From a virus (Duplodnaviria; Heunggongvirae; Uroviricota; Caudoviricetes), in IMG/VR virus record IMGVR_UViG_2617270939_000005: a stretch of 11,968 nucleotides of DNA. One strand, 5' to 3'. Position 1 is the stretch's first letter. Each line of letters begins with the position of its first letter. Positions 1 through 11,968 of the stretch are shown here, one piece after another. The position numbers and the translations under genes were made by a program. The notes below the pieces were generated by a model that saw only the letters and a list, made by a program, of their open reading frames with translations, did no database searches and was not told the origin of the DNA.

Positions 1-327
1 CTATGTCACGATGAACTGCGGCGTAAGAAAATCAGCGCGCTTATCCCTCCCCGAAAAGGTGCGGGTTACTGGCCCGGTGAATATGCAGACCGTAACCGTG
101 CAGTGGCTAATCAGCGAATGACCGGGAGTAATGCGCGGTGGAAATGGACAACAGATTACAACCGTCGCTCGATAGCGGAAACGGCGATGTACCGGGTAAA
201 ACAGCTGTTCGGGGGTTCACTGACGCTGCGTGACTACGATGGTCAGGTTGCAGAGGCTATGGCCCTGGTACGAGCGCTGAACAAAATGACGAAAGCAGGT
301 ATGCCTGAAAGCGTGCGTATTGCCTGA
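1..327 (+). CDS. IS5-family (IS903-type) transposase, C-terminal fragment (5' end outside window)
   Basis: Open frame from position 1 to TGA at 325-327; the last ~108 residues match the IS903 transposase C-terminus as recalled. The ORF track's 103..327 is the in-frame Met-started sub-portion. Confidence 0.85.
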   Translation, partial: LCHDELRRKKISALIPPRKGAGYWPGEYADRNRAVANQRMTGSNARWKWTTDYNRRSIAETAMYRVKQLFGGSLTLRDYDGQVAEAMALVRALNKMTKAGMPESVRIA

Positions 328-365
328 AAACACAACCCGCTACGGGGGAGACTTACCCGAAATCT

Positions 366-383
366 GATTTATTCAACAAAGCC
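366..383. repeat. IS903-type 18-bp terminal inverted repeat (right end)
   Basis: GATTTATTCAACAAAGCC read directly; lies ~40 bp downstream of the transposase stop, as expected for this IS. Confidence 0.7.
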
Positions 384-501
384 GTGTTTTCTGTTAATGT
401 TAACAACCCTTGAATTTCGTCTTTGGTATAGTGGCTCTTTATTTCATTTTTTAATTTGGCTGAGTGAATCAGAAGACGATAATTAGGGTACTTATCTGGA
501 T

Positions 502-651
502 TTAACGATAAATAACTTTTATCTGTTGCTGCCCCGTGGAATTAAGAATGTTAAATACAGATTCACTCGTCACTTCTGCCCCTGTCGCCTGGCATGTGCC
601 GCACGAAAATATACCAGCGAGCAGAAGAGTTAATGCAGATTTCCCTTTCAT
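502..651 (-). CDS. Hypothetical small exported protein (about 49 aa from the MKGK start)
   Basis: The track ORF 502..693 begins with GTG; the internal ATG at 649-651 gives MKGKSALTLLLAGIFSCGTCQATGAEV..., with a positively charged N-terminus and hydrophobic stretch resembling a signal peptide. Only a weak GGAA Shine-Dalgarno-like element precedes it. Short and unsupported by any homology I can recall. Confidence 0.3.
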   Translation of the reverse strand: MKGKSALTLLLAGIFSCGTCQATGAEVTSESVFNILNSTGQQQIKVIYR

Positions 652-884
652 AAAATATTCCATCAATCGTTTGTTAAAAGCGTAGATAACCACTTATTTA
701 ACAACTTGAAAATAAGGTGTTTTACCTGGGTTGTTACAAAAGGATTGCATTGCGTAAACGCTTTTTATTTACAACAAAATGGGGAAATATTACGGCGATT
801 GCGAAAAGTCTGAAGCGATTGAATTAAGATAATATAGAAAATCAGATACAGCAAAAATGGCAGATTGATGAGGTGAAGATAAAT

Positions 885-912
885 TGGAGCGGGCGAAGGG
901 AATCGAACCCTC
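885..912 (-). repeat. 3'-terminal 28-nt fragment of tRNA-Gly (CCC-anticodon, glyU-like): T-arm, acceptor 3' strand and CCA. Attachment-site direct repeat, not an intact tRNA gene
   Basis: Reverse complement of 885-912 is GAGGGTTCGATTCCCTTCGCCCGCTCCA. It has a TPsiC-loop (GGTTCGATTCC), an acceptor 3' strand CGCCCGC and CCA, matching the 3' end of enterobacterial tRNA-Gly(CCC) as I recall it. Similarity to a tRNA body stops at 912, so the 5' two-thirds of the tRNA are absent here. Confidence 0.7.
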
Positions 913-1000
913 TTTGCTAACCCTATGAATTGTGAACCAAAATAAGTAATCGCGGTACTTATCCCGGTAGTTGGTAGCGGTAGATTACAAGGTAATTACC

Positions 1001-2221
1001 ATGCCAATCAAGAAGACTTCTTATCTTTATGCAAACAAAGATGGGATATTCATCTTTCAAATCTATATTCCGGTCTACATGCGCCACCTCTGGAACGGGC
1101 GGCGCTCGCTCAAGAAATCGACAGGCACACGGGACATCATGCAAGCTCGCATTTTCCGTGACCAATATTTATTAGAGTTCCGTAAGCTACAGCTCATGAT
1201 GAAACCGGATAACCCCATTACCCGGATTCATTCCGCTGTAACAGATCTTCACTTGCTGGCGGGGGTATCCAGCAGCATTACCACACCCGCAACTATTCCA
1301 GCAGAGCGGGGAAAACCAGCATCACCAAAATTGACAGATGTCAGTAAAGAATATGCAGAGCAATACAAAGATCGGCGCTCTTATTCCACGCTGAGTAAAT
1401 CAGTTCGCGCTGTATCGGCATTTACTAATTCAATAAAACGCCCAACCATTACAATAAATGGAATCGGGCGGCGGCTCGTCTCTGACTTTCTGGAAGCGAA
1501 CCAAGATAAGTTTTCCCGCCAGACGCTGCAAAACTGGTTAACCTGCTTAGGGACGCTGTATGACTTCGCCCGGCGTAAATATGACAATATCGCCCCTGAT
1601 AATCCCTTTCACGGCCACAATCTGGAAGCCCGCCAGACGAACGAAAGTTATCAACCTTTTGAACTACACCAGCTACAGGCATTAATAAAAGAGGCAGGTA
1701 GCGAGATACGAGACGTAATCATAATCGGTTTGTATTCCGGTATGCGTCTCGACGAAATCGCCAGCATCAAACGAGTTGAGATTATCAAAGTTGAAGGGGT
1801 ACGCTGCTTCTACGTCAGCAAATCTAAAACTAAAGCGGGTGTAAGGCACGTCCCCATACACTCGCTGTTAATCAGCATCGTTGATAAATACCTTGCGCAG
1901 AACAACGGTGAATACCTGCTCCCCCAATCGAACAAGATTAAACGTGCCGACGGTAAGCGTGGCCCGTGGTACTCGCAGGCATTTACACGGCTACGCCGTC
2001 GCGTGCTGTCAGCGGCTACAGATCGCCAATGCTTCCACTCCCTGCGTGGTCACTTTATTACTTGCTTAGACAGAGCAGGAGTACCAGAACAGCGCATAGG
2101 GGCAATAACCGGGCATACCGAACAAAAAGCTAAAACGGAAGCTTTCAGGACATATAGCAAGGGAGCAGGGATGAAAGAACTATGGGAGTATGTGGAGTTG
2201 GTCAGTTATCCGTGTTTATAA
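1001..2221 (+). CDS. int: Tyrosine site-specific integrase (phage-type), 406 aa from the ATG at 1001
   Basis: The track ORF 971..2221 starts at TTG; the ATG at 1001 is preceded by AAGG at 988-991. The C-terminal catalytic region carries the tyrosine-recombinase signature: GLYSGMRLDEI (Arg), SKSKTKAGVRHVPI (Lys), HSLRGHF (His-x-x-Arg), ITGHTE (His) and FRTYSKG (Tyr). Sits directly beside the tRNA-derived att repeat. Confidence 0.9.
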   Translation: MPIKKTSYLYANKDGIFIFQIYIPVYMRHLWNGRRSLKKSTGTRDIMQARIFRDQYLLEFRKLQLMMKPDNPITRIHSAVTDLHLLAGVSSSITTPATIPAERGKPASPKLTDVSKEYAEQYKDRRSYSTLSKSVRAVSAFTNSIKRPTITINGIGRRLVSDFLEANQDKFSRQTLQNWLTCLGTLYDFARRKYDNIAPDNPFHGHNLEARQTNESYQPFELHQLQALIKEAGSEIRDVIIIGLYSGMRLDEIASIKRVEIIKVEGVRCFYVSKSKTKAGVRHVPIHSLLISIVDKYLAQNNGEYLLPQSNKIKRADGKRGPWYSQAFTRLRRRVLSAATDRQCFHSLRGHFITCLDRAGVPEQRIGAITGHTEQKAKTEAFRTYSKGAGMKELWEYVELVSYPCL

Positions 2222-2223
2222 AA

Positions 2224-2247
2224 AAGGCGCTATAGCGCCTTTCTTTT
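2224..2247. terminator. Bidirectional rho-independent terminator between convergent genes
   Basis: AAAGGCGC-TATA-GCGCCTTT hairpin (core stem GGCGC/GCGCC at 2226-2230 and 2235-2239) flanked by AAAAA on the left and TTTCTTTT on the right. Lies between the integrase stop (2219-2221) and the stop of the convergent minus-strand gene (2246-2248). Confidence 0.6.
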
Positions 2248-2620
2248 AAACATCAAAGATGACATCACCATGATACGCGTTAAACTGCGGATTCCGCATG
2301 ATGGTGATCACTTGCTGAACTACCCACTTTGCACCGATATCAAGTTCATGCTCTATAGCGCACGGTATAGCAATACCAGATTTCTGACACTTGATAGTGA
2401 AGGAAAATCCCTCATCTTTGCCTAGAATTGTCTGCAAGTGTTGTCCAATGAAATTTGTAAAAATCACTCTCAACTCAGCTAACGTGATTGGAGGTTTATT
2501 ACGCGGATCATTAAGTCTATCAACAGCAAAATGAAATGACATCTTTAGCTTGGCTCTATCTTCTTCCAAGATATCGTTAATATCTGCAACTAAATCATCA
2601 ATCTGCTGTTGAGTTATCAT
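2246..2620 (-). CDS. Hypothetical protein, 124 aa, second gene of low-GC two-gene cassette
   Basis: ATG at 2618-2620 overlaps the upstream gene's TGA (ATGA overlap, translational coupling). Acidic protein with no motif I recognise. Sampled 60-nt blocks in the cassette give roughly 37-42% G+C, against ~50-53% in the neighbouring operon. Confidence 0.6.
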   Translation of the reverse strand: MITQQQIDDLVADINDILEEDRAKLKMSFHFAVDRLNDPRNKPPITLAELRVIFTNFIGQHLQTILGKDEGFSFTIKCQKSGIAIPCAIEHELDIGAKWVVQQVITIMRNPQFNAYHGDVIFDV

Positions 2621-2826
2621 ATGTGTGCAGCCGTGATCTCAGCTAATTTCTTGTTCAACTCTTCATCGTTTGAAGCTGTGATGGTGCCTACAAATTCAGT
2701 GCGTGATAAAGTACCAGCACGCACATCGAATTCGTAGTTGTCAAACGAATCAACGACGACAAACGCCTTGGTTGCTGGGTTAAAAAACGATGCACAATTT
2801 TGGTTTGTACGCATATCAAAGTTCAT
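2617..2826 (-). CDS. Hypothetical protein, 69 aa, first gene of low-GC two-gene cassette
   Basis: ATG at 2824-2826 preceded by a strong AGGAGG Shine-Dalgarno (reverse complement of CCTCCT at 2831-2836). Acidic small protein, no recognisable motif. Confidence 0.6.
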   Translation of the reverse strand: MNFDMRTNQNCASFFNPATKAFVVVDSFDNYEFDVRAGTLSRTEFVGTITASNDEELNKKLAEITAAHI

Positions 2827-3027
2827 ATTATCCTCCTACCCCTTCAAGGGAGATGTAGGAACGAAGTATTCTCAAGTTGAAGCTCAGTTTGGAGACATAT
2901 TAGGAAACTGTTTTATGCTCAGCCTACGCAATCTACGTCAATCCGTCAAGAATTGTTTTAAATATAGGCAAGTAACAAGGCAGCCACAACAACACATAAC
3001 CGAATGAAAATAAAAGAAATAATCTCA

Positions 3028-3465
3028 TCACGCATGTTGTCTTGGATAAATAACGCCCAACCCCTTGTATTGTCGGCGGTAGGCAGGTAGCATGCTTAAC
3101 ATGCTACCTCGTGAGAGTCCGCACAAATTTCCCACATAATAACCACCTTCCGCTGCATTGGCCGAACGATGAACCACAGCGCGCACACGTCCAGTTCGGT
3201 GACAGTGATCCAATACAGCAGACGCGAGGCGTAGCGGCTTAGCTGTCACCGCGCAGCGTCGGTATTGATAATTCCACAGGAAGACACGGACAGCGGCCAC
3301 ATCAGCGCGGCGCAACTCCAGCCGTCCTGAACCATTCAACAGGAAGTGATACACATCATCGAACGCAGCAGAATTTTTAATGCGTTCCGCTAGCGGCATG
3401 TTGCCGAGATATTCCAGATAGCCTCGCATCGCTTTTCTTAGTAGTTGGTCTGTCCGTGTAACCAT
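3028..3465 (-). CDS. Hypothetical protein, 145 aa, last gene of the structural-type operon
   Basis: ATG at 3463-3465 with GGAGG 9 nt upstream; overlaps the preceding gene by 28 nt. Function unknown. Confidence 0.55.
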   Translation of the reverse strand: MVTRTDQLLRKAMRGYLEYLGNMPLAERIKNSAAFDDVYHFLLNGSGRLELRRADVAAVRVFLWNYQYRRCAVTAKPLRLASAVLDHCHRTGRVRAVVHRSANAAEGGYYVGNLCGLSRGSMLSMLPAYRRQYKGLGVIYPRQHA

Positions 3466-3737
3466 GATTCAAAGCCTCCACTGTCAGATGCAGCCCGTTT
3501 GCAGGCTTCGTATTCTTCGCGCTGGCGTTGGCATACCAGAGCATAAAGCTCGGCGGCCATCGCATTAACACGTTCGTCACTGATACCATTGCGGCGCATC
3601 AGCCCCAGCAGCTTACGAAATTTAGCTTCAAGCTCAGGCTCTCCGGTATCCATTACCCACTGTTTCAGGTCAGCGAGTGCGCCAGTCATTGGTGGCGGCT
3701 CGATGTACCGCCACCTTAATTTAATCGTGGTTATCAT
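3438..3737 (-). CDS. Hypothetical protein, 99 aa (start revised to the first ATG)
   Basis: The track ORF 3438..3785 begins with TTG. The first ATG at 3735-3737 has GAGGA 8 nt upstream and gives MITTIKLRWRYIEPPP.... Overlaps the upstream gene's end (3721) by 17 nt. Confidence 0.5.
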   Translation of the reverse strand: MITTIKLRWRYIEPPPMTGALADLKQWVMDTGEPELEAKFRKLLGLMRRNGISDERVNAMAAELYALVCQRQREEYEACKRAASDSGGFESWLHGQTNY

Positions 3738-4146
3738 TTTCTTTATCCTCTCTGTAAGCCGGGTGCATTGCCCGGTATTGCTCAATGGTCAAACCCTCGC
3801 TGGCCGCTGCAAACCGTTCCTTTTGCTTACCCGCCAATCGCAAGGCGCTGTCTCTCCAGCAGAGCAGAAAGAAGATGGTCAGCACCTGCTTACTCAAGCC
3901 ATCCAGAAGATCACCAAGCCCTTGCTCCAGAAGACAGGCACGCCATGCAGCGGCGTGCTCAGTCATAGCACCTACTATCGGGACAGGTGCTCCGAGCATT
4001 GTCGCAAGCTGACTCATAACACTGTTAGCATCGCCCGGATGCAGCCGTGGAATAGTCATGCGGCCAGCCTGCGCCAACAGTTCAGCGTACCGCTGGCGGC
4101 GCGGGTCATCATCTGCCAGCGCTCTAATCGGCTTTTCATCAGCCAT
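3721..4146 (-). CDS. Hypothetical protein, 141 aa; possible small terminase subunit by position only
   Basis: ATG at 4144-4146 with GGAGG 9 nt upstream. Sits immediately downstream of the HNH endonuclease, the position usually held by terS in HK97-like packaging modules. No sequence motif confirms this; it is a context inference. Confidence 0.55.
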   Translation of the reverse strand: MADEKPIRALADDDPRRQRYAELLAQAGRMTIPRLHPGDANSVMSQLATMLGAPVPIVGAMTEHAAAWRACLLEQGLGDLLDGLSKQVLTIFFLLCWRDSALRLAGKQKERFAAASEGLTIEQYRAMHPAYREDKENDNHD

Positions 4147-4164
4147 TAATGGAACCTCCGAGGA

Positions 4165-4692
4165 TTAGGCAGCCTGCAATAAATCGGCTGGCGTTGACGG
4201 ATGGTATCTGGCTTTAGCTTTCAGGTACGCAGCACGCGCCGCCGCTTCGGTAGTGAATAAGCCGAGGTGATGGCGAACACCACCAACGCGAATGTAAGCC
4301 TCCCATCTGCCAGAGCAGGCATGGTGGCTATAACCCTTGGCTTTGCGGTAATTGTGCTGGTTCTCTTGTGGCGTAACCGTGCGGAGATTGATAAGGCGGT
4401 TGTCATCGCGTACCGCGTTGATATGGTCGATTTGCATCCCGGCAGGGATACCGTCATTAGCAATGATGAAGGCGACACGGTGGGCGTATAGCGCATGAGA
4501 TTTGCCATTGATGCGGACAGATACGCGCCTATATCCGGCGCTGTCCGTTACCGTGTCGGCCAGTTCCCCGGCTTTAGCGTAAATCCGCTTGTTGGCTCCG
4601 ATCCGGTCTACTGCATGGAACAGGCGGCCAGTCTTCGCATCGTACCGAAACAAAGAGCGCAACAGCTCCGGGGCATAAGCATCAATATTCAT
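4165..4692 (-). CDS. HNH endonuclease with AP2-type DNA-binding domain (phage packaging-associated HNH)
   Basis: HNH motif IDHINAVRDDNRLINLRTVTPQENQHN (His...Asn...Asn/His spacing typical of HNH_3) and a C-terminal AP2-like segment GRWEAYIRVGGVRHHLGLFTTEAAARAAY. ATG at 4690-4692 with AAGGGG upstream. Confidence 0.85.
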   Translation of the reverse strand: MNIDAYAPELLRSLFRYDAKTGRLFHAVDRIGANKRIYAKAGELADTVTDSAGYRRVSVRINGKSHALYAHRVAFIIANDGIPAGMQIDHINAVRDDNRLINLRTVTPQENQHNYRKAKGYSHHACSGRWEAYIRVGGVRHHLGLFTTEAAARAAYLKAKARYHPSTPADLLQAA

Positions 4693-4708
4693 GGCTCGGC
4701 CCCTTTTG

Positions 4709-5704
4709 TTATGCAGCTTGTCGGAAATTTATAACGCAGTCAGGGCGGCGCAGCCCAACATTGAACAGGCGATATGAGTCCATCACCATTGTCATTTCGC
4801 GTTCATCATCCCACTGGCGATTGATAACGCTCTGCGCTTCGACTGTCACAAGTACAGACGCAGGCCGGAACAGCGTCGCCCGTGTCAGCGCTTCCCCTGC
4901 GGTCACATCATAATCAGCGCCCAGTTCATGCGCGGTAATGGCTTCCTGCGGGTAACTGTTCAGCTCAATAACTCGCACCCCAGCGACATAGCCAACGCGA
5001 CGCCATGCGTAATCATTGCCACTATCCCGGCTGTAACGGACGTTCATCAACTTCTTATGTTCCATCAGGATGCTGAACCAAGCTGGGTCGATGAGAAGGC
5101 ACAGCTCCGCCACCGGAATATCTTTTTCAGTTAGGAATCGATTAACAGCAGCTTTAATAGCGTGAACCAGTTCGTTAGCCGCATCCTCTTCGCTCCCCGT
5201 TGTCAGGTCGAGCGAGACAACATTATCCGTCAGCGGGTTAAACGTTGGTTGCAACGTAGGCGGCGGTACAAAGTCAGTCGCTTTGATTAGCTGGATAGTG
5301 TGCGCTTCGTCGTAGAACTTTGCATGGGCTGTCCCCATGTTGCGGCTCAGCTCTGCGCGAAAGGTGGGCGCTGTCCAGTCGTCTTGATAGTCAATCGGGA
5401 TGCGGATATAGCTCAGCGTATCCACAGAGATAATCAGCTTGTCCGACTTAACGGCGGTAGGCTCCAGCGATTGCCCTGCGGTTCTGCCCTTCACCTCCAG
5501 ATCTCCGCTCAGGCGGTCTACACGATACTGATTACTGTTTTTCAGCGGCTTGTATGTGCTCAGCCCCTCGGCGAGAAACACGCTCTTTGCCTCAAGGCGG
5601 GTCTGAACGTCCCGGTCATACGCTTCAATGTGAATGTCGTTGTCAGCATCTACACCGCCCCAGTGCGGGCGGAATTGGTCAGGGGTATAAACATTGTCAG
5701 TCAT
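4709..5704 (-). CDS. Putative major capsid protein (lambda gpE-like family, tentative), 331 aa
   Basis: ATG at 5702-5704 with GGGAG 9 nt upstream. Size and two segments (LLIDPAWFSIL and the C-terminal W-DDEREMTMVMDS...RRPDCVINF) loosely resemble lambda E-type capsid proteins as I remember them. The resemblance is from memory and not verified by alignment. Confidence 0.5.
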   Translation of the reverse strand: MTDNVYTPDQFRPHWGGVDADNDIHIEAYDRDVQTRLEAKSVFLAEGLSTYKPLKNSNQYRVDRLSGDLEVKGRTAGQSLEPTAVKSDKLIISVDTLSYIRIPIDYQDDWTAPTFRAELSRNMGTAHAKFYDEAHTIQLIKATDFVPPPTLQPTFNPLTDNVVSLDLTTGSEEDAANELVHAIKAAVNRFLTEKDIPVAELCLLIDPAWFSILMEHKKLMNVRYSRDSGNDYAWRRVGYVAGVRVIELNSYPQEAITAHELGADYDVTAGEALTRATLFRPASVLVTVEAQSVINRQWDDEREMTMVMDSYRLFNVGLRRPDCVINFRQAA

Positions 5705-5772
5705 AGAAATAGCTCCCGCGCCAGCGTTAGCCAGCGCGATTTATGGAAAAGGGGAAAAGAGAATGGGATGAA

Positions 5773-6120
5773 TCAGGCAGCAGCTTTTTCAGCCGCGATC
5801 TCAAGAATCAGGCCGATAAGCGCGAAGGCAGGCCAATGGGGATTAAGCTCGTGCAGGTGCGCAACGCCCCCACCAAAAGCATCGCGCATATCAGCACCAG
5901 AGATGCCCGCGCGTTTGGCCGCCCGGCGCAGCAATCGCAGCTCGGAGCCGGGAACATACGCCGAGGGCATACGCACGCCGAAGCGTGAGGCGAGCCGCCG
6001 CCAGTGCGCTTCGTCAGCAAAGTCCTGCTTAAGCTGGCTGGCGTTGGCTTTCCAGTGTTCAATCCTCGCGCTACGGGCAGCCCTAGCCGCTGCCACGTTT
6101 TCAGGTGTCAGTAAGGTCAT
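5773..6120 (-). CDS. Hypothetical protein, 115 aa
   Basis: ATG at 6118-6120 and stop at 5773-5775. Arg/Ala-rich, predicted helical, with only a weak ribosome-binding site. Lies in high-GC DNA where antisense ORFs are common, but it fills the gap between two well-supported genes on the same strand. Confidence 0.5.
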   Translation of the reverse strand: MTLLTPENVAAARAARSARIEHWKANASQLKQDFADEAHWRRLASRFGVRMPSAYVPGSELRLLRRAAKRAGISGADMRDAFGGGVAHLHELNPHWPAFALIGLILEIAAEKAAA

Positions 6121-6279
6121 TGTCAGATCTCAATGCAAAGTGGGTTTATGTGTGGTGTTTGAGAGGTAATTTCGCGTTTTACAGGTGCAGGTATACGAAT
6201 GTACATCTGGCGATGTACAACGCGATTCAGGCTCTAAAACGTAAGGTTAAGACGTGGGGAAGACAGGACAGGCGATTGC

Positions 6280-7806
6280 TTAACGGCCAGCGCGTTTGCC
6301 AGCGGAGCGCTGCGCAACCAGAGCGCGGTATTGATCGTCGTACTGGCGATGGCCGGGGCCATACCCTGATTGCTGCGCCCACTGCGAAAGCTGATCATAC
6401 GCTGCAATAAACTCAGCATGAGACATACCAACAGGTTGCGAGGCAGGCTGGCCGTATGGGTTCCCCTGTGATGGGACATAACCAGTCGCAGTGCCTGCGA
6501 CCATACGCTCTTGCAGATAATGAACCGCCCGCTGCATCTGCGCAGGGTCGCCAGACATAACCATCCGTTCAAGGGTTGATTGCGTCCCGGCGTCGAGCGT
6601 GCCAGCGTACTGCAACATCGCGTCAACTGTCCCCTGCCCTAGCTGGCTTTCGACAGACTGGTGAAACTGCCCCATCAGCCCATGAAGTTCAGGAGTCAAC
6701 TCAACAGTAGTGCCATCCTGTAATTGCAGCGTGTCGCCCACTTGCGCAGCAACATCAATCTGCTGGTCTTGCTGGTTGGCAAAGTTACTTTCGTTCCAGC
6801 TTTGATTAATGTTCGCTGGCTGCGTTTTCAGGAAATCAGCATCAGGTGTTGTCTGGTCGAATCTGCTAGCGCCGTTGTCAGCGCCTACAGGTGCGGCCAT
6901 GTACGGCGATTGCTGCGGCGCAGTATCAGCGCCCGAAAGGTACGGATTAACATTCTGGTCAGCCAGCACATCACTACCACGGGAGAAGATCGCATCAGCA
7001 ACAGACAACTGCCCCGGCCTCCACTCCAGCCCATCGGGTGGCAACAGGCTAACGCGTGCGTTTCGGTCACAGCGAACCAGCGGGCGAAACTCATAAGAGG
7101 CTGTATTCAGTGACGGCACAGACGGCGACACTGCCAAGCCGTTTGGGTCACAATGATGATTTGTACTGTTAAATTTATCCTCGGTAGGTTTCGACTCTCC
7201 ACACCACAATTGACGAAACTCCGCTGAGTCCCCGTAGCGTTTGAAATCTGAATTGCGCATCGCTTCCAGTTTATTCATGCCCCTGTTGATGCGGTGTATA
7301 GTCTTCTCATCACAAATCAGGAACTCGCGGCAGGCTTTGAGAAAAGCATTCTGCCCGGTTGTCGATGCCGAAACGGCGTGCTCGCGCGGTTTCAATGCGG
7401 CATCATCTACGCGAACACCGGGAAAATCAGGCGGCAGCGGGTCAGCATACCGAGCAGGCTTCTTGTTGAGCCACATTTCTATCTCAGCGCGTCGGCAATG
7501 AATTGCGTCACCGGGCTGGATGACTTGCCGCAACCCCGTGTCAGAGCGCTGTTTTTGCTTCTTCGGTTGAACACCATGCAGCGCTCGCCATTCCCGCAGG
7601 GTCATAGCGGAGCCATCAGCATTGTAATAAAACTCTTCGGTCTTCGTGTTGTATGCCGCCTTAACGGGTTTATGCTTTATCGGGCATATCTTGGAACGCC
7701 GAATAACAATCCCGTCAGCGACCATTTGCTGTACATCTGCGTTTGCGGTATTGAGCGGGTCAGCGTCGGCAGCCTGCGCAAGCAAACGGCGTAGGTTCGT
7801 TGGCAT
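6280..7806 (-). CDS. Hypothetical protein, 508 aa: N-terminal region with HTH-like segments, C-terminal half Gln/Gly/Ala-rich low complexity
   Basis: ATG at 7804-7806 with GGAG 8 nt upstream; first gene of the minus-strand operon. Segments AMTLREWRALHGV and QVIQPGDAIHCRRAEIEMWL look like DNA-binding (AlpA/HTH-like) motifs. The C-terminal ~200 residues are Q/G/A/P-rich. No Walker A or protease motif seen. Confidence 0.7.
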   Translation of the reverse strand: MPTNLRRLLAQAADADPLNTANADVQQMVADGIVIRRSKICPIKHKPVKAAYNTKTEEFYYNADGSAMTLREWRALHGVQPKKQKQRSDTGLRQVIQPGDAIHCRRAEIEMWLNKKPARYADPLPPDFPGVRVDDAALKPREHAVSASTTGQNAFLKACREFLICDEKTIHRINRGMNKLEAMRNSDFKRYGDSAEFRQLWCGESKPTEDKFNSTNHHCDPNGLAVSPSVPSLNTASYEFRPLVRCDRNARVSLLPPDGLEWRPGQLSVADAIFSRGSDVLADQNVNPYLSGADTAPQQSPYMAAPVGADNGASRFDQTTPDADFLKTQPANINQSWNESNFANQQDQQIDVAAQVGDTLQLQDGTTVELTPELHGLMGQFHQSVESQLGQGTVDAMLQYAGTLDAGTQSTLERMVMSGDPAQMQRAVHYLQERMVAGTATGYVPSQGNPYGQPASQPVGMSHAEFIAAYDQLSQWAQQSGYGPGHRQYDDQYRALVAQRSAGKRAGR

Positions 7807-7880
7807 GGTGAAATCTCCAAAATTAAGGTGAGTTTAGAACGAGGCGCAGGACGGCAGCGCCGAGCTGCCCGTAGAGAGAA

Positions 7881-7947
7881 TTTCATGTCAGCAGTGACGT
7901 TGAATGTTCTGTCCCTCTTTAGTAGTGACTTTCATGTAGGTCACTAC
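7881..7947. promoter_or_regulatory. Operator-like repeat cluster upstream of the minus-strand operon
   Basis: Perfect 8-bp inverted repeat GTAGTGAC (7922-7929) and GTCACTAC (7940-7947) with a 10-bp spacer TTTCATGTAG. The motifs TTTCATGT and AGTGAC both recur at 7881-7898. Located 75-140 bp upstream of the 508-aa gene start. Confidence 0.35.
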
Positions 7948-8210
7948 GTATGCACAAGCGAGTGGTGTTCGTTTTGCCACAGTAGAAACTCTAATTTGAT
8001 TATTTTTTAATCAACACCTTTGTAAGCCTTGCCCTGTCTGACTTGATGAATGATTTGCTGATAACTTTCAGTAGGTTTGTTGGGATGCTGGGATGTAAGG
8101 GGTTATAAGCGGCATTGTGAGTACCATATCCCAATATAGTACCGTACCACTACTCTATCCCCGCCGCGTTGACTGCCTGGCAAGCACGGTTGCGTGGAGG
8201 GCCGAGCATC

Positions 8211-8260
8211 ACAGCGGGCGAAGGCCGGGAATGAGCCAAAGGCGATGGAGCGGGCTGGAG
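8211..8260. repeat. Degenerate copies of the tRNA-Gly 3' end (relic att-type direct repeats)
   Basis: AGCGGGCGAAGG at 8213-8224 is identical to 888-899 of the tRNA fragment, and TGGAGCGGGC at 8246-8255 is identical to 885-894; both are in the same orientation as the 885-912 repeat. The surrounding 8200-8300 is purine-rich with recurring GAGC...AGCG units. Confidence 0.45.
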
Positions 8261-8629
8261 CATAGCGAGAAGCGCAGCCAGTGTAGAGCGAAAAGCGATA
8301 ACACTGATTAGGAGAAGGGATGAAAGGGAAGAACCCTTTTCTGTACATGTATTTTAAATGCAACTTTAAAGGTAAAACGAAGGTGTTGCCCTGCTTCAAA
8401 TCTAGCTGAGTGATTGGACAACACAGCCTTTGATCCCTTCCCCTGCCCCATCCCTCGAATTGTTCAGTGATAAATCACATTCACAATCTGATCTTGATAC
8501 TCATCGTCTGGCACGGCTAAAGCCCCGCCATCTCTTCATATCAAGAGCCGCAAGTAATACGGAAATACATTATAAATCATACCATTACGAGATTAGGCAT
8601 AACATAAATATCTGATATCAATACAAAAG

Positions 8630-8700
8630 CTGTAGGCCATCCATCACCCACAGCCCAGTAACGGCCAGTGCTGGCATCTCATCAGACTGTAGGTCATCAC
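8630..8700. repeat. Imperfect direct repeat CTGTAGG(C/T)CATC...CAC at the 3' end of the recombinase gene
   Basis: CTGTAGGCCATCCATCAC at 8630-8647 and CTGTAGGTCATCAC at 8687-8700; the second copy overlaps the recombinase stop codon at 8697-8699. Significance uncertain. Confidence 0.35.
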
Positions 8701-9329
8701 TCTGTAACGCTGGCGGACAGCTCACGTTTGATACGGTAGAACGTTGCCCGGCTTATCCCGGCAGCTTTCATGATGTGCTCTGGTTTATTCCCAACGGTAA
8801 GCATAGCGCGGACAGTTTCACGGGCGCTCTCATCCTTAGACTTCCCGTTATATTTCCCCTCGGCTTTGGCACGCTTGATGCCCTGCGCTTGGCGTGCTCT
8901 GCGTGTCTCGTAGTCCACTCGTGCCATCGTAGCGAGGATATCAATCAGCATTGCGTTAACAGCTCTCAGGATGCCCTCTGTAAGCTCTGACGCCGTATCG
9001 TTCAGTAGTTGCCATGAGGTTGGCAGGTCAACGGCAACGATCACCAGTCCCTTATCCTGAATCCTCTGTTTCAGTGTCGCCCATTCCTTTTGCGTAAGGC
9101 GGCTTAGCCTGTCGATGCTCTCGACAAGCAAGACCTCTCCGGCCTGCGCATCATCCAGCAAGCGCATTAGTTCAGGACGCGCCAGCCTCGCACCGCTGGC
9201 GTTCTCGATGTACTCCGCCCGTACAGGCCAGCCCCGATCACTGGCGAACTCTCGCAGCAAGCCCAGCGCCCGGTCTGCGTGTTGCTCTGATGTACTGGCG
9301 CGGCAATAGATAAGCGCATTGTGTGCCAT
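8697..9329 (-). CDS. Small serine recombinase (resolvase/invertase family), 210 aa
   Basis: N-terminal catalytic motif YCRASTSEQ (the Y-x-R-x-S-T-x-x-Q serine recombinase signature), the VESIDRLSR motif and a C-terminal HTH (AAGISRATFYRIKRE). ATG at 9327-9329 with GGGGGA upstream. Confidence 0.85.
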   Translation of the reverse strand: MAHNALIYCRASTSEQHADRALGLLREFASDRGWPVRAEYIENASGARLARPELMRLLDDAQAGEVLLVESIDRLSRLTQKEWATLKQRIQDKGLVIVAVDLPTSWQLLNDTASELTEGILRAVNAMLIDILATMARVDYETRRARQAQGIKRAKAEGKYNGKSKDESARETVRAMLTVGNKPEHIMKAAGISRATFYRIKRELSASVTE

Positions 9330-10046
9330 GCTTCCCCCTAAGTCTCAATGAAATATCACAGCAAGACCTATAAGAGATCACATCAATAATGTGTAGTCAA
9401 TAGAGTTTTATAGATAGTCAAATGAGACAGTGTGTCTATGTCTTTATCAGGTATACCCGAAAGAGACTGGCACCGCCCCACAGCAGCATTCCCCGGCACA
9501 TCCAGCGAACACAGCGTAGAGCGCACGCAGCAGATCAGCACGGCACCGCCACGATCTCGAAATCACAAAGGCATTGAATCACACATTGGAAGCACAGAAC
9601 GCAGCACAGAGCGATACAGATCGTTTTAGAGGGATGTACAGATACACAGTGAAAGGCAGATGATCGCAGCACTCGTCCCACACGGTTATTCAGCAACAGC
9701 AATCAGCCAGCATCTCGCTCAGTAGCACGCTCCTGTAATGCTTGTCTCGGATGAGCAAAATCTTAGGGTTTCTCAGCGACCCCTGACGCGCGGGCACGCA
9801 CATGCACACGGGGGCGCGGGCGAGCTATAGAGTTGAGGGAGGGGCAACCATAAGCGTGCAATTTTCAAGCTGGGACTTTTAACAGTGGGATTGTGGGGCT
9901 GTTTTGCATTCAGAGAGTGAGGCTGTGGGGGAGCCCTCCTTGAACCAAATAATGCGAAACTGATCATTCTTCCACGTAGCTTAGGCCACTTTGCATGGAT
10001 AATTAGCACCAAACACAGCAGCCAGTTTAAGAGAAATGCGCGACAT

Positions 10047-10265
10047 CTACCGTCTGCGTTTACCCCAGCGCTGCATTATGGCTCTGTGTGCTTCATCCGC
10101 TGACCATTCAATAGGTACAACAACGTGTACAGGCATTTCATCGCCAGAGGGGGCACCACGTAAATGGACTCTATACCCTAGTTTATTAAGTTCTACCTCG
10201 GACATCGGTGATATAACCTCGCCGCTATGGCTGCCGCCAACAAACTCAGCTTTAAAATCCAACAT
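10047..10265 (-). CDS. Hypothetical protein, 72 aa (doubtful)
   Basis: ATG at 10263-10265 lies directly downstream of a G9 run on the minus strand (C9 at 10267-10275 on plus) that could serve as a Shine-Dalgarno-like element. Its composition is more protein-like than the overlapping plus-strand ORF 10036..10359 (Ser/Thr/Pro-rich). No homology recognised. Confidence 0.35.
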   Translation of the reverse strand: MLDFKAEFVGGSHSGEVISPMSEVELNKLGYRVHLRGAPSGDEMPVHVVVPIEWSADEAHRAIMQRWGKRRR

Positions 10266-10266
10266 G

Positions 10267-10275
10267 CCCCCCCCC
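10267..10275. repeat. Homopolymeric C9 tract (G9 on minus strand)
   Basis: Nine consecutive C read directly at 10267-10275, immediately 5' of the 72-aa minus-strand ORF start and inside the alternative plus-strand ORF. Confidence 0.9.
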
Positions 10276-10355
10276 TACACACTAACAAGAATCATTGAAG
10301 GTGTATCACCCAGCAACTACGCTGGGCAGAACATCACCTCGGACTATCAATCAAC

Positions 10356-10814
10356 TTAGTATCGCTTTGTGTCTCGTAGTATTACAGACAGTAACCACCA
10401 CCATTGGCGTTTGATCCAACAAACATCACTGAACATCTTGCCGTCAGATGTTTTGATATAAACCCCGCCACGATGATGCACTTTGTTGTGATGAGCCTTA
10501 TTTATGAATGGCACGTTCAAGACCATTTCGTCTCGTGCTTTCAATCTTTTTGGCAGCATCGGTGTGATCATGTTCTCGTCCGAATATTCGTCGGATAACA
10601 TTCTAAGGCGTCCACTGGCTGTTACCACACCGGCTGCACTCAACGTTACATCGTGTGCGCTTATGTTCGAAACGTATATCCTGTCCTCGTGCTGATCACA
10701 TCCGAGATAAAGCCTTAGCGATGTTCTGGATTTTAGTAATTGAAATACGGACAAAGCAAAACCCGCCCACGCCGCGATCCCTGTCCAGTTATCTGTTTGG
10801 GTGATCCAAGTCAT
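10356..10814 (-). CDS. Hypothetical single-pass membrane protein, ~152 aa
   Basis: The track ORF starts with TTG at 10815-10817; the ATG at 10812-10814 overlaps the upstream gene's TGA (TGATG), indicating coupling. The N-terminal stretch WTGIAAWAGFALSVFQLL is a probable transmembrane helix, followed by a soluble domain with a His/Lys-rich segment (KAHHNKVHHRGG). Confidence 0.6.
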   Translation of the reverse strand: MTWITQTDNWTGIAAWAGFALSVFQLLKSRTSLRLYLGCDQHEDRIYVSNISAHDVTLSAAGVVTASGRLRMLSDEYSDENMITPMLPKRLKARDEMVLNVPFINKAHHNKVHHRGGVYIKTSDGKMFSDVCWIKRQWWWLLSVILRDTKRY

Positions 10815-11041
10815 CAAGGCTGCATCCCCTTCGACATAAGATACTTAACGATCCCTTCTCGTTGCCTATTACTCAGCTGAAAACATTTGTCTAGTTGAGA
10901 TAAAACCTGCTCGACATCATCTGCCAAGATGGCACTAGCTGCACGAGCGGGGAGATCTCCCTGAATTTTGATAGTGAAATACCCTGAAGATATTGATAGC
11001 TTCAAAAAACAACCTGCTGAGAACTCGTAACTCTCGCTCAT
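10814..11041 (-). CDS. Hypothetical protein, 75 aa, first gene of the minus-strand operon
   Basis: ATG at 11039-11041 with AGAGG about 6 nt upstream; stop overlaps the start of the membrane protein gene. No motif recognised. Confidence 0.55.
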   Translation of the reverse strand: MSESYEFSAGCFLKLSISSGYFTIKIQGDLPARAASAILADDVEQVLSQLDKCFQLSNRQREGIVKYLMSKGMQP

Positions 11042-11113
11042 AACCGCCTCTGTTGCCAGTTTTTCAGTAAACTGACAGTATATTCCTGAACCTTTATTAC
11101 ATCACGCGCACAC

Positions 11114-11125
11114 AAAAAAAAAAAA
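11114..11125. repeat. Homopolymeric A12 tract in a divergent intergenic region
   Basis: Twelve consecutive A read directly at 11114-11125, between the divergently oriented 75-aa gene (start 11041) and 259-aa gene (start 11189). Confidence 0.9.
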
Positions 11126-11188
11126 TGACCGACTCAGTTCGCAAATTTCTGGATAATCTATCCATACAATAATTATCAAGGATAAGTT

Positions 11189-11968
11189 ATGTCATCAGAT
11201 AACTTCGTGACATTTTGGCTTGCTAAAGTAGATCGGCCCTATTTTCTTGAACCTCACGAATTTTATGTTTCGGAAGCAAGACGGAGACTTTTGTCTCAGT
11301 TTGGGGATCTGACCCAAGAGGCGGAGGAGCGAGAGAAACAGTTTCTGGAGTATACCGCTGAGCATTTCAATCCTGATTTTGACGACCCAATGGCAGCCTA
11401 TGAGCAAGCATATGAGGAGGGTGTAAACTACGTCTGGTCACTTATTGAAATGCAAGAAACTGTTCTTTTGGCAGTAACTGCGGGTATGTATCACCAGTTC
11501 GATAAAAAGTTACGAGAAAAAACGATCAGAGAATTGTCTCATTGGTGTGATAAAGAGATCATTACACCAATGGTTTGGGATTTAAATTTTGATCAACTGT
11601 TGAAACTGCTCGAGTGGATCGGTCTCAAGATAGATGAAACTGATTATGGCGATAAGCTCAAAGCGTGCGCATTAGTCGTAAATGTGTACAAACATGGTGA
11701 TGGAAATTCTCACCGCCTCCTATCATCAACTCATCCAGAATATTACCCTCATCCTACTGGTATATGCGGCAGACATATCAATCCTACTCATGATGATCTG
11801 CATGTAACAGAAGAACAGTTTGTTGAATTTGCTGATGCAATAACAACATTTTGGAAAGCAATACCAGAATACTGCTATTACTCCGAACTGTCGGATGAGC
11901 CAGAGTGGTTAATTAAGCTTGTAAAAAAGAGCGAAAAGAAGTTAAGAAAAGGAAATACAAGGCCATAA
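11189..11968 (+). CDS. Hypothetical protein, 259 aa, AT-rich gene; contains an R-x5-H segment (HRLLSSTH) reminiscent of HEPN motifs
   Basis: ATG at 11189 with AAGGA 6 nt upstream; the TAA stop coincides with the window end (11966-11968). A sampled 60-nt block gives ~38% G+C. The HEPN suggestion rests on a single short motif and is speculative. Confidence 0.7.
   Translation: MSSDNFVTFWLAKVDRPYFLEPHEFYVSEARRRLLSQFGDLTQEAEEREKQFLEYTAEHFNPDFDDPMAAYEQAYEEGVNYVWSLIEMQETVLLAVTAGMYHQFDKKLREKTIRELSHWCDKEIITPMVWDLNFDQLLKLLEWIGLKIDETDYGDKLKACALVVNVYKHGDGNSHRLLSSTHPEYYPHPTGICGRHINPTHDDLHVTEEQFVEFADAITTFWKAIPEYCYYSELSDEPEWLIKLVKKSEKKLRKGNTRP

Follow-up and report, generated by a model that had tools for sequence, protein, structure and literature searches.

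We have analysed a 508-codon open reading frame (ORF) in the 11,968-nucleotide stretch of the IMG/VR virus record IMGVR_UViG_2617270939_000005 (hereafter, the window) and conclude with considerable confidence that it is a chimera, created by one recent in-frame deletion of 2,898 bp in a decaying genomic island at a tRNA-Gly gene. The first 282 residues of its product derive from a RecQ-family helicase and the remaining 226 from what is, judged by its sequence relatives, a phage head scaffolding protein. The ORF is present as an earlier note, made from the sequence alone, had described it: it begins with ATG, is preceded by a GGAG ribosome-binding site at a distance of about 9 nt, and opens a co-directional block of minus-strand genes with 890 bp free of coding sequence upstream. 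The block continues with a 115-aa ORF, the capsid gene, an HNH endonuclease gene, two small ORFs, an endonuclease-VII-like gene and a 124-aa ORF. The product, of approximately 56 kDa, is annotated as hypothetical in public records; the length of the ORF is far above chance and both halves have many homologues. The value of the fusion ORF is mainly corrective, as it is a deletion chimera of two identifiable genes and not a new protein architecture.

Deletion junction, parent genes and spread of the fusion

The DNA of the fusion ORF was searched against 5,426 complete E. coli genomes, 59 of which gave matches. In each of them one matching place, annotated as 'DEAD/DEAH box helicase', extended over no more than the first 845 nt, and in nearly all of the 59 a second one lay elsewhere (median, two places per genome). 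No match covered 80% or more of the query, and the fusion gene was found in none of the 5,426 genomes. In the best of them, NZ_LR536431.1, the same island adjoins tRNA-Gly, and blastn aligned the window to it in three blocks: 1012-6965 and 6962-8193 at 100% identity and 8743-11968 at 99.9%. The first two blocks abut in the window and are separated by 2,898 bp (966 codons) in NZ_LR536431.1. The tetranucleotide TGGC is common to the helicase gene (…GTGCTGGCCGTT…) and to the start of the 228-aa scaffold gene (…ATCATGGCTGAC…), and it is because the identity is complete on both sides of the gap, with this microhomology at the junction, that we attribute the ORF to a deletion.

Helicase codons 1-282 are thereby joined in frame to codon 3 of the scaffold gene, and the fusion protein matches WP_001142870.1 at every position over residues 1-282 and WP_000775003.1 likewise over residues 2-228, with one alanine (helicase residue 282, scaffold residue 2) common to both parents. 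In NZ_LR536431.1 the RecQ-family helicase (614 aa) and the 228-aa protein are encoded by separate genes, and five small genes lie in the interval; the distance between the scaffold and helicase genes in intact islands is 1.9 kb. The deleted DNA comprises the helicase core, the five small genes (products of 145, 68, 58, 187 and 79 aa) and the start codon and ribosome-binding site that had belonged to the scaffold gene. Two of the lost products carry some indication of their nature: the 68-aa product has a weak likeness to T7-type (gp18-like) small terminases (PF11123, E 3.3e-4, below the cut-off; phrog_891, E 0.004), and an HTH (helix-turn-helix) is present in the 187-aa product. The coordinates of the fusion, its parts and the surrounding features are collected in Table 1. 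In this case a near-identical sister locus resolved an odd architecture faster than domain searches, which returned nothing on the full length.

Table 1. Features of the window relevant to the fusion ORF and the island that carries it
Feature	Position	Strand	Basis or remark
Chimeric 508-aa ORF (56 kDa), stop included	6280..7806	-	exact protein on 71 E. coli contigs
Fusion residues 1-260, orphan N-domain of RecQ-family helicase	7027..7806	-	identical to WP_001142870.1 residues 1-260
Fusion residues 261-282, first 22 of helicase core (WRPGQ...DVLA)	6961..7026	-	cut before LPTGYGKT
Deletion junction, microhomology TGGC	6962..6965	.	blastn against NZ_LR536431.1 and junction inspection
Fusion residues 283-508 and stop, scaffold residues 3-228	6280..6960	-	identical to WP_000775003.1
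Residues 463-505, predicted helix-loop-helix and basic tail (…RSAGKRAGR)	6292..6420	-	AlphaFold2 (AF2), alignment to phage scaffolds
Upstream control region from helicase gene	7807..8026	-	promoter scan, repeat inspection; weak
115-aa ORF between scaffold and capsid genes, phrog_21723 (function unknown)	5773..6120	-	
Major capsid protein, 331 aa, Autographiviridae type	4709..5704	-	phrog_267, E 2.8e-67
Attachment (att) repeat, 28 bp, equal to the 3' end of tRNA-Gly	885..912	.	integrase-side island end
Tyrosine integrase of the island	971..2221	+	PF00589, phrog_1
Serine recombinase	8697-9329	-	

The arrangement of the parent genes in related islands indicates which state is ancestral. Homologues of the N-terminal half are mostly helicases of 614-635 aa from Escherichia, Enterobacter, Citrobacter, Cronobacter and Kosakonia, with a few shorter truncated or partial forms, and homologues of the C-terminal half, from the same genera and from Klebsiella and Phytobacter, stand alone at 224-240 aa, except for fragments and one Map chimera. 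The gene order is kept (recombinase, helicase, 145, 68, 58, 187, 79, scaffold, (115), capsid, HNH, 141, 99, EndoVII-like; numbers are product lengths), also where the island lies at tRNA-Leu and has a different integrase, and on an IMG/VR contig whose integrase is similarly diverged; the protein identities across these are 56 to 97%. Since separate genes are the rule in these related islands, the fusion is taken to be the derived state.

The exact 508-aa protein was found on 71 contigs (NCBI, ENA and Logan), all of E. coli; 24 of the fusion-bearing contigs were read. The identical stand-alone allele of the scaffold occurs on 499 contigs, and from this ratio the fusion is a recent minority variant. 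Its recency is also indicated by the loci themselves: the window is 100% identical to contig JNQD01000173.1 of GCA_000704025.1, and three other fusion loci that were compared are 99.99% identical to it. One of these four loci adjoins a different tandem island. In this assembly, SRR11046575, the second island abuts at the att site (1-5384 of the retrieved locus) and encodes a primase with DUF927, SSB, PerC and PRiA4_ORF3, which indicates tandem island accretion at tRNA-Gly.

The same set of contigs bears on whether the ORF could be an assembly or sequencing artefact, in which a contig had been collapsed or mis-joined. The absence of the fusion from the complete E. coli genomes would be expected of an artefact; the identical protein and junction nevertheless recur in independent assemblies (NCBI, ENA metagenomes and Logan SRA), on contigs of up to 276 kb, and we regard this explanation as having almost no probability.

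Identity of the two halves

The scaffold identity of the C-terminal half emerged when this half was used alone as the query. It then matched the PHROG family phrog_1018, 'head scaffolding protein', at E 2.2e-5, as did 14 of 20 of its homologues (best E 1e-7); the full 508-aa sequence had no PHROG match at E 0.1. Scaffolding proteins of Klebsiella phage VLCpiA1n (Drulisvirus; UVX29263.1; BLASTP E 7e-7, hhalign probability 89%) and Escherichia phage forsur (Bonnellvirus; QHR71813.1; BLASTP E 5e-4, hhalign probability 82%) were recovered, and the C-terminal half aligns end to end with the C-termini of both. The AF2 model of the scaffold has low confidence overall (mean predicted local distance difference test, pLDDT, 54.8), with residues 1-75 disordered, helices at 90-156 and a C-terminal helix-loop-helix at 181-223 (helices 181-198 and 205-223) where the block-mean pLDDT rises to 73-78. 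Residues 463-505 of the fusion are the stretch best conserved with the phage scaffolds and are presumed to be the coat-binding end. Foldseek against BFVD gave probabilities of up to 0.99 with borderline E-values and low TM-scores; seven of the eight best matches are named Autographiviridae-type scaffolding proteins and one is unnamed. A profile search of the PDB with the scaffold family returned nothing, and none of 50,697 phage records was matched by the fusion in tblastn.

The scaffold gene lies upstream of the capsid gene and is co-directional with it, but the 115-aa ORF and 160 bp intervene, where the corresponding genes of forsur and VLCpiA1n are adjacent. The capsid protein itself is 57.7% identical to the capsid protein of the Bonnellvirus forsur over 98% of its length and approximately 36-43% identical to those of most other listed phages of phiKMV, Drulisvirus and Friunavirus type, with a few weaker matches. 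On these grounds we consider the C-terminal half to be, by its sequence, a genuine podophage-type (Autographiviridae) head scaffolding protein. It resembles the Autographiviridae scaffolds (T7 gp9 type, phrog_1018) in the profile match, in the ...Y..L.A.R.AGKR.G tail, in the predicted layout of disordered N-terminus, helical core and terminal helix-loop-helix, and in its place upstream of an Autographiviridae-type capsid gene. It differs from them in that they are 280-410 aa long and the island protein 228 aa, in that they are encoded by phages while the island scaffold resides in a chromosomal island with the 115-aa ORF before its capsid gene, and in the 282 foreign residues that precede it in the window.

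The earlier note had described this half as a long Gln/Gly/Ala-rich low-complexity tail. The bias in composition is real (Q 14.2%, A 11.9% and G 9.7% in the last 226 residues, with an isoelectric point, pI, of 4.5), but strict low complexity is confined to one 12-residue window with an entropy of at most 2.2 bits, and the sequence family is conserved, with many invariant columns. Portal, protease and tape-measure identities were considered and rejected, as Pfam, PHROGs and NCBIfam gave no such match. The note had stated that its view would be overturned by homology over the full length to a family of portal, protease-scaffold or tape-measure proteins; this is likewise absent, and only the C-terminal 226 residues are scaffold-like. 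Domain searches and structure prediction, which it had proposed, gave nothing usable for the full length, a scaffold for the C-terminal half alone and an unreliable model for the N-terminal half.

One other scaffold-family chimera was observed. A 359-aa protein at 2434-2862 of IMGVR_UViG_2690316066_000016, seen on this one 13.2-kb contig only, combines a methionine aminopeptidase (PF00557) with residues 82-228 of the scaffold family, and represents a second scaffold fusion of independent origin or else a chimera produced in assembly.

The N-terminal half is basic (pI 9.15 for the first 282 residues) and belongs to a single helicase family. Residues 1-260 are 64-93% identical in 22 helicases, with many invariant Cys, His and Trp, and an exhaustive phmmer search of 1.84 billion representatives gave 14 matches, 12 of which are proteins of the helicase family or pieces of them; the remaining two, which are the weakest, are a repetitive, chance-like protein and one of 202 aa with 38% identity. 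In the intact helicase, Pfam DEAD starts at residue 264 and TIGR00614/RecQ at 261, and DEAD and Helicase_C together span 264-575. The helicase part of the fusion stops at residue 282, directly before the Walker A motif LPTGYGKT, so that Walker A, DEAH and the C-terminal helicase domain are absent, and we infer that the fusion cannot act as a helicase. Residues 1-282 are thus the start of a RecQ-family/DpdF-like superfamily 2 (SF2) helicase (TIGR00614, WP_001142870.1), and residues 1-260, which are without a counterpart in RecQ and true DpdF, are by their distribution an orphan helicase accessory domain. The parent helicase is inferred to be the island's replication helicase; recognition of an origin or a partner by the N-domain would be a guess.

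Part of this half matches a defence-system model, namely positions 1-172 of PADLOC PDLC02858 ('DpdF') with fusion residues 111-282. Against the full helicase (12001-13845 of the retrieved NZ_LR536431.1 locus) the same model scores 888 bits and extends from residue 111 to the C-terminus, while NCBIfam DpdF (NF041063) aligns only from residue 275, at 128 bits against a cut-off of 550. No further island protein matches a Dpd model. A Dpd (7-deazaguanine DNA modification) defence system, in which DpdF would be accompanied by DpdA/B/C and the other dpd genes, was rejected because other dpd genes are missing and PDLC02858 is essentially this helicase family; the model appears to have been built from this island family, and PADLOC scans may mislabel such islands as partial Dpd systems.

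The earlier note had seen HTH-like segments in the N-terminal half, and had suggested that a scaffold-like domain might be fused there to a regulator or a replication initiator. This is borne out in its architecture, but not as an unusual evolved protein. Residues 1-260 gave no HTH or other match in Pfam, PHROG or NCBIfam at E≤0.1 and no PDB sequence match, although a missing HTH match does not prove the absence of DNA binding. The AF2 model of the N-terminal 282 residues, from a 23-sequence alignment, is unreliable (mean pLDDT 45.9), and a PDB fold search with it found no match better than E 4.5. In favour of an evolved protein of this kind are the basic N-terminal part, which comes from an island helicase that may recognise an origin, and the palindrome and repeats upstream. 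However, every other island examined encodes the two parts in separate genes, the junction lies 22 residues into the helicase core and off the domain boundary, no HTH or other DNA-binding family was detected, and the N-domain otherwise occurs only attached to a helicase core. We therefore give very little credence to a regulator or initiator natively joined to a scaffold tail and acting on the repeats at 7881-7947.

The upstream region of the helicase gene is kept ahead of the fusion. It contains a sigma-70-like site at 8026-7999, from a scan whose promoter count does not exceed that expected after shuffling, a 26-bp palindrome at 7922-7947 (GTAGTGACTTTCA/TGTAGGTCACTAC) and repeated ACATGAAA/GTCAC motifs at 7875-7937. 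Megablast shows no conservation of the segment 7807-8137 in islands with a 90% identical helicase gene, which would fit a lineage-specific operator.

Expected product and possible functions

If the chimeric gene is expressed, it would be from the promoter and ribosome-binding site of the helicase gene, and the 56-kDa product would be the only source of scaffold in the deleted island. Three parts would follow one another in this product: the basic helicase N-domain, a disordered linker of about 75 residues, which is the natural N-terminus of the scaffold, and the intact scaffold core with its helix-loop-helix. Such a linker should let the scaffold core fold, and coat binding may persist. The scaffold part is likely to be the only part that keeps an activity, namely binding of the island capsid protein. 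Since the helicase and the candidate packaging and regulatory genes have been lost, the deleted island can probably neither replicate nor achieve packaging by itself. Island decay most likely gave rise to the fusion as a by-product.

Proteins with a comparable layout exist. P2 gpO and lambda C/Nu3 are natural protease-scaffold proteins, and engineered cargo fused N-terminally to the P22 scaffold is encapsidated. As in the window, a non-scaffold domain is N-terminal to a scaffold with a coat-binding C-terminus, and by this analogy the fusion might be tolerated and enter procapsids. The difference is one of origin and content: those proteins evolved or were designed and carry a protease or a chosen cargo in front, whereas the fusion arose by a single recent deletion and carries a helicase fragment.

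The attribution to chance deletion has to be weighed against several points. A randomly placed endpoint would be unlikely to leave the deletion in frame and its right end exactly at the scaffold start codon, with the whole scaffold kept; possibly variants persisted only if they still expressed the scaffold and capsid genes. The 71 contigs, which include at least two genomic contexts (the tandem island present or absent), imply that the fusion is not strongly deleterious. Every functional statement about the fusion, moreover, is drawn from sequence.

Because the in-frame junction falls exactly at the scaffold start codon, some probability has to be left to a selected function, in which the fusion is retained because its scaffold end still binds capsid protein. 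It could support capsid assembly of the island type with the helicase N-domain carried inside, or it could poison the capsid assembly of an infecting Autographiviridae phage, the decayed satellite having become a defence element. The deletion preserves the entire scaffold in frame, and the capsid gene and the rest of the downstream operon are intact; an N-terminal addition should spare the helical core behind the predicted disordered residues of the scaffold; the recurrence on many contigs and the encapsidation of cargo fused N-terminally to the P22 scaffold agree with it. Against this, the copies show no sequence divergence, so that selection is not measurable, the fusion is a minority beside the stand-alone scaffold allele, the same architecture was found nowhere else independently, and the sister island is also gathering lesions. 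We consider a retained function unlikely. Its more specific form, in which a scaffold under an early helicase promoter and with a foreign 282-residue head is a capsid-assembly decoy kept for blocking phage heads, is a little less likely still; if it were true, the target of the decoy would be capsid protein, incoming or of the island, and its origin a decayed satellite of Bonnellvirus-type phages.

The island and comparable satellites

The island that carries the chimera is approximately 14.4 kb when intact and corresponds to 885-11968 of the window with about 430 bp beyond it, and to 7892-21697 of the retrieved NZ_LR536431.1 locus. The window itself contains no tRNA gene, only the att repeat that matches the 3' end of tRNA-Gly exactly. 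Related islands occur at tRNA genes in Escherichia, Enterobacter, Citrobacter, Cronobacter, Klebsiella and Phytobacter. The copy in NZ_LR536431.1, intact at the helicase and scaffold genes, has lesions of its own. It lacks 549 bp (window 8194-8742; between 11614 and 11618 in the retrieved locus), with a 5-bp microhomology at the junction, and has thereby lost the last 15 codons (3' end) of the serine recombinase and the downstream spacer. An IS1A is inserted at the 5' end of its integrase gene (locus 21697-22410), and its match to the window stops at 1012, past the integrase start at 1001. Sister islands each with a different deletion, and with IS1, fit the pattern of a decaying island lineage.

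Between the recombinase and tRNA-Gly lie two cargo ORFs, 10356-10817 (-), of 153 aa, and 11189-11968 (+), of 259 aa, neither with a Pfam or PADLOC match. The tRNA-Leu island has different genes in this position, including one for a DUF3800 protein, as expected of a variable accessory or defence slot. Outside the island, a 74-aa ORF at 103-327 (+) weakly matches the C-terminus of a DDE transposase (PF01609, E 4e-4, below the cut-off) and is probably an insertion sequence (IS) remnant.

The island family is a more interesting lead than the fusion ORF. Neither was found described in the literature searched; many subscription-journal papers lay outside its coverage, so this is weak evidence of novelty. 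The head genes detected were those for the capsid and the scaffold, with the weakly small-terminase-like 68-aa ORF in the intact copy, and profile searches of the island detected no portal, protease, head-tail connector, large terminase or tail gene. From this gene content, the family looks like a satellite of virulent Autographiviridae podophages, and its natural deletion and fusion variants would be ready-made mutants for this idea.

Satellites with capsid genes of their own have been reported, namely the capsid-forming phage-inducible chromosomal islands (cf-PICIs; bioRxiv 10.1101/2022.09.08.507074) and the Streptomyces elements Mulch and Flayer (PMC10690885). Assignment of the island to the capsid-forming PICI class, whose head module comprises capsid protein, protease, portal, head-tail connectors and small terminase, was rejected on gene content, as no portal, protease or connector was found. 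The cf-PICIs carry a lambdoid HK97 module, whereas the island has the capsid gene of a virulent podophage type (Autographiviridae), with none of the portal, protease, connector and large terminase genes detected. The island resembles the cf-PICIs, Mulch and Flayer in having an integrase, att repeats at tRNA genes and its own capsid and scaffold genes, together with a lack of tail genes.

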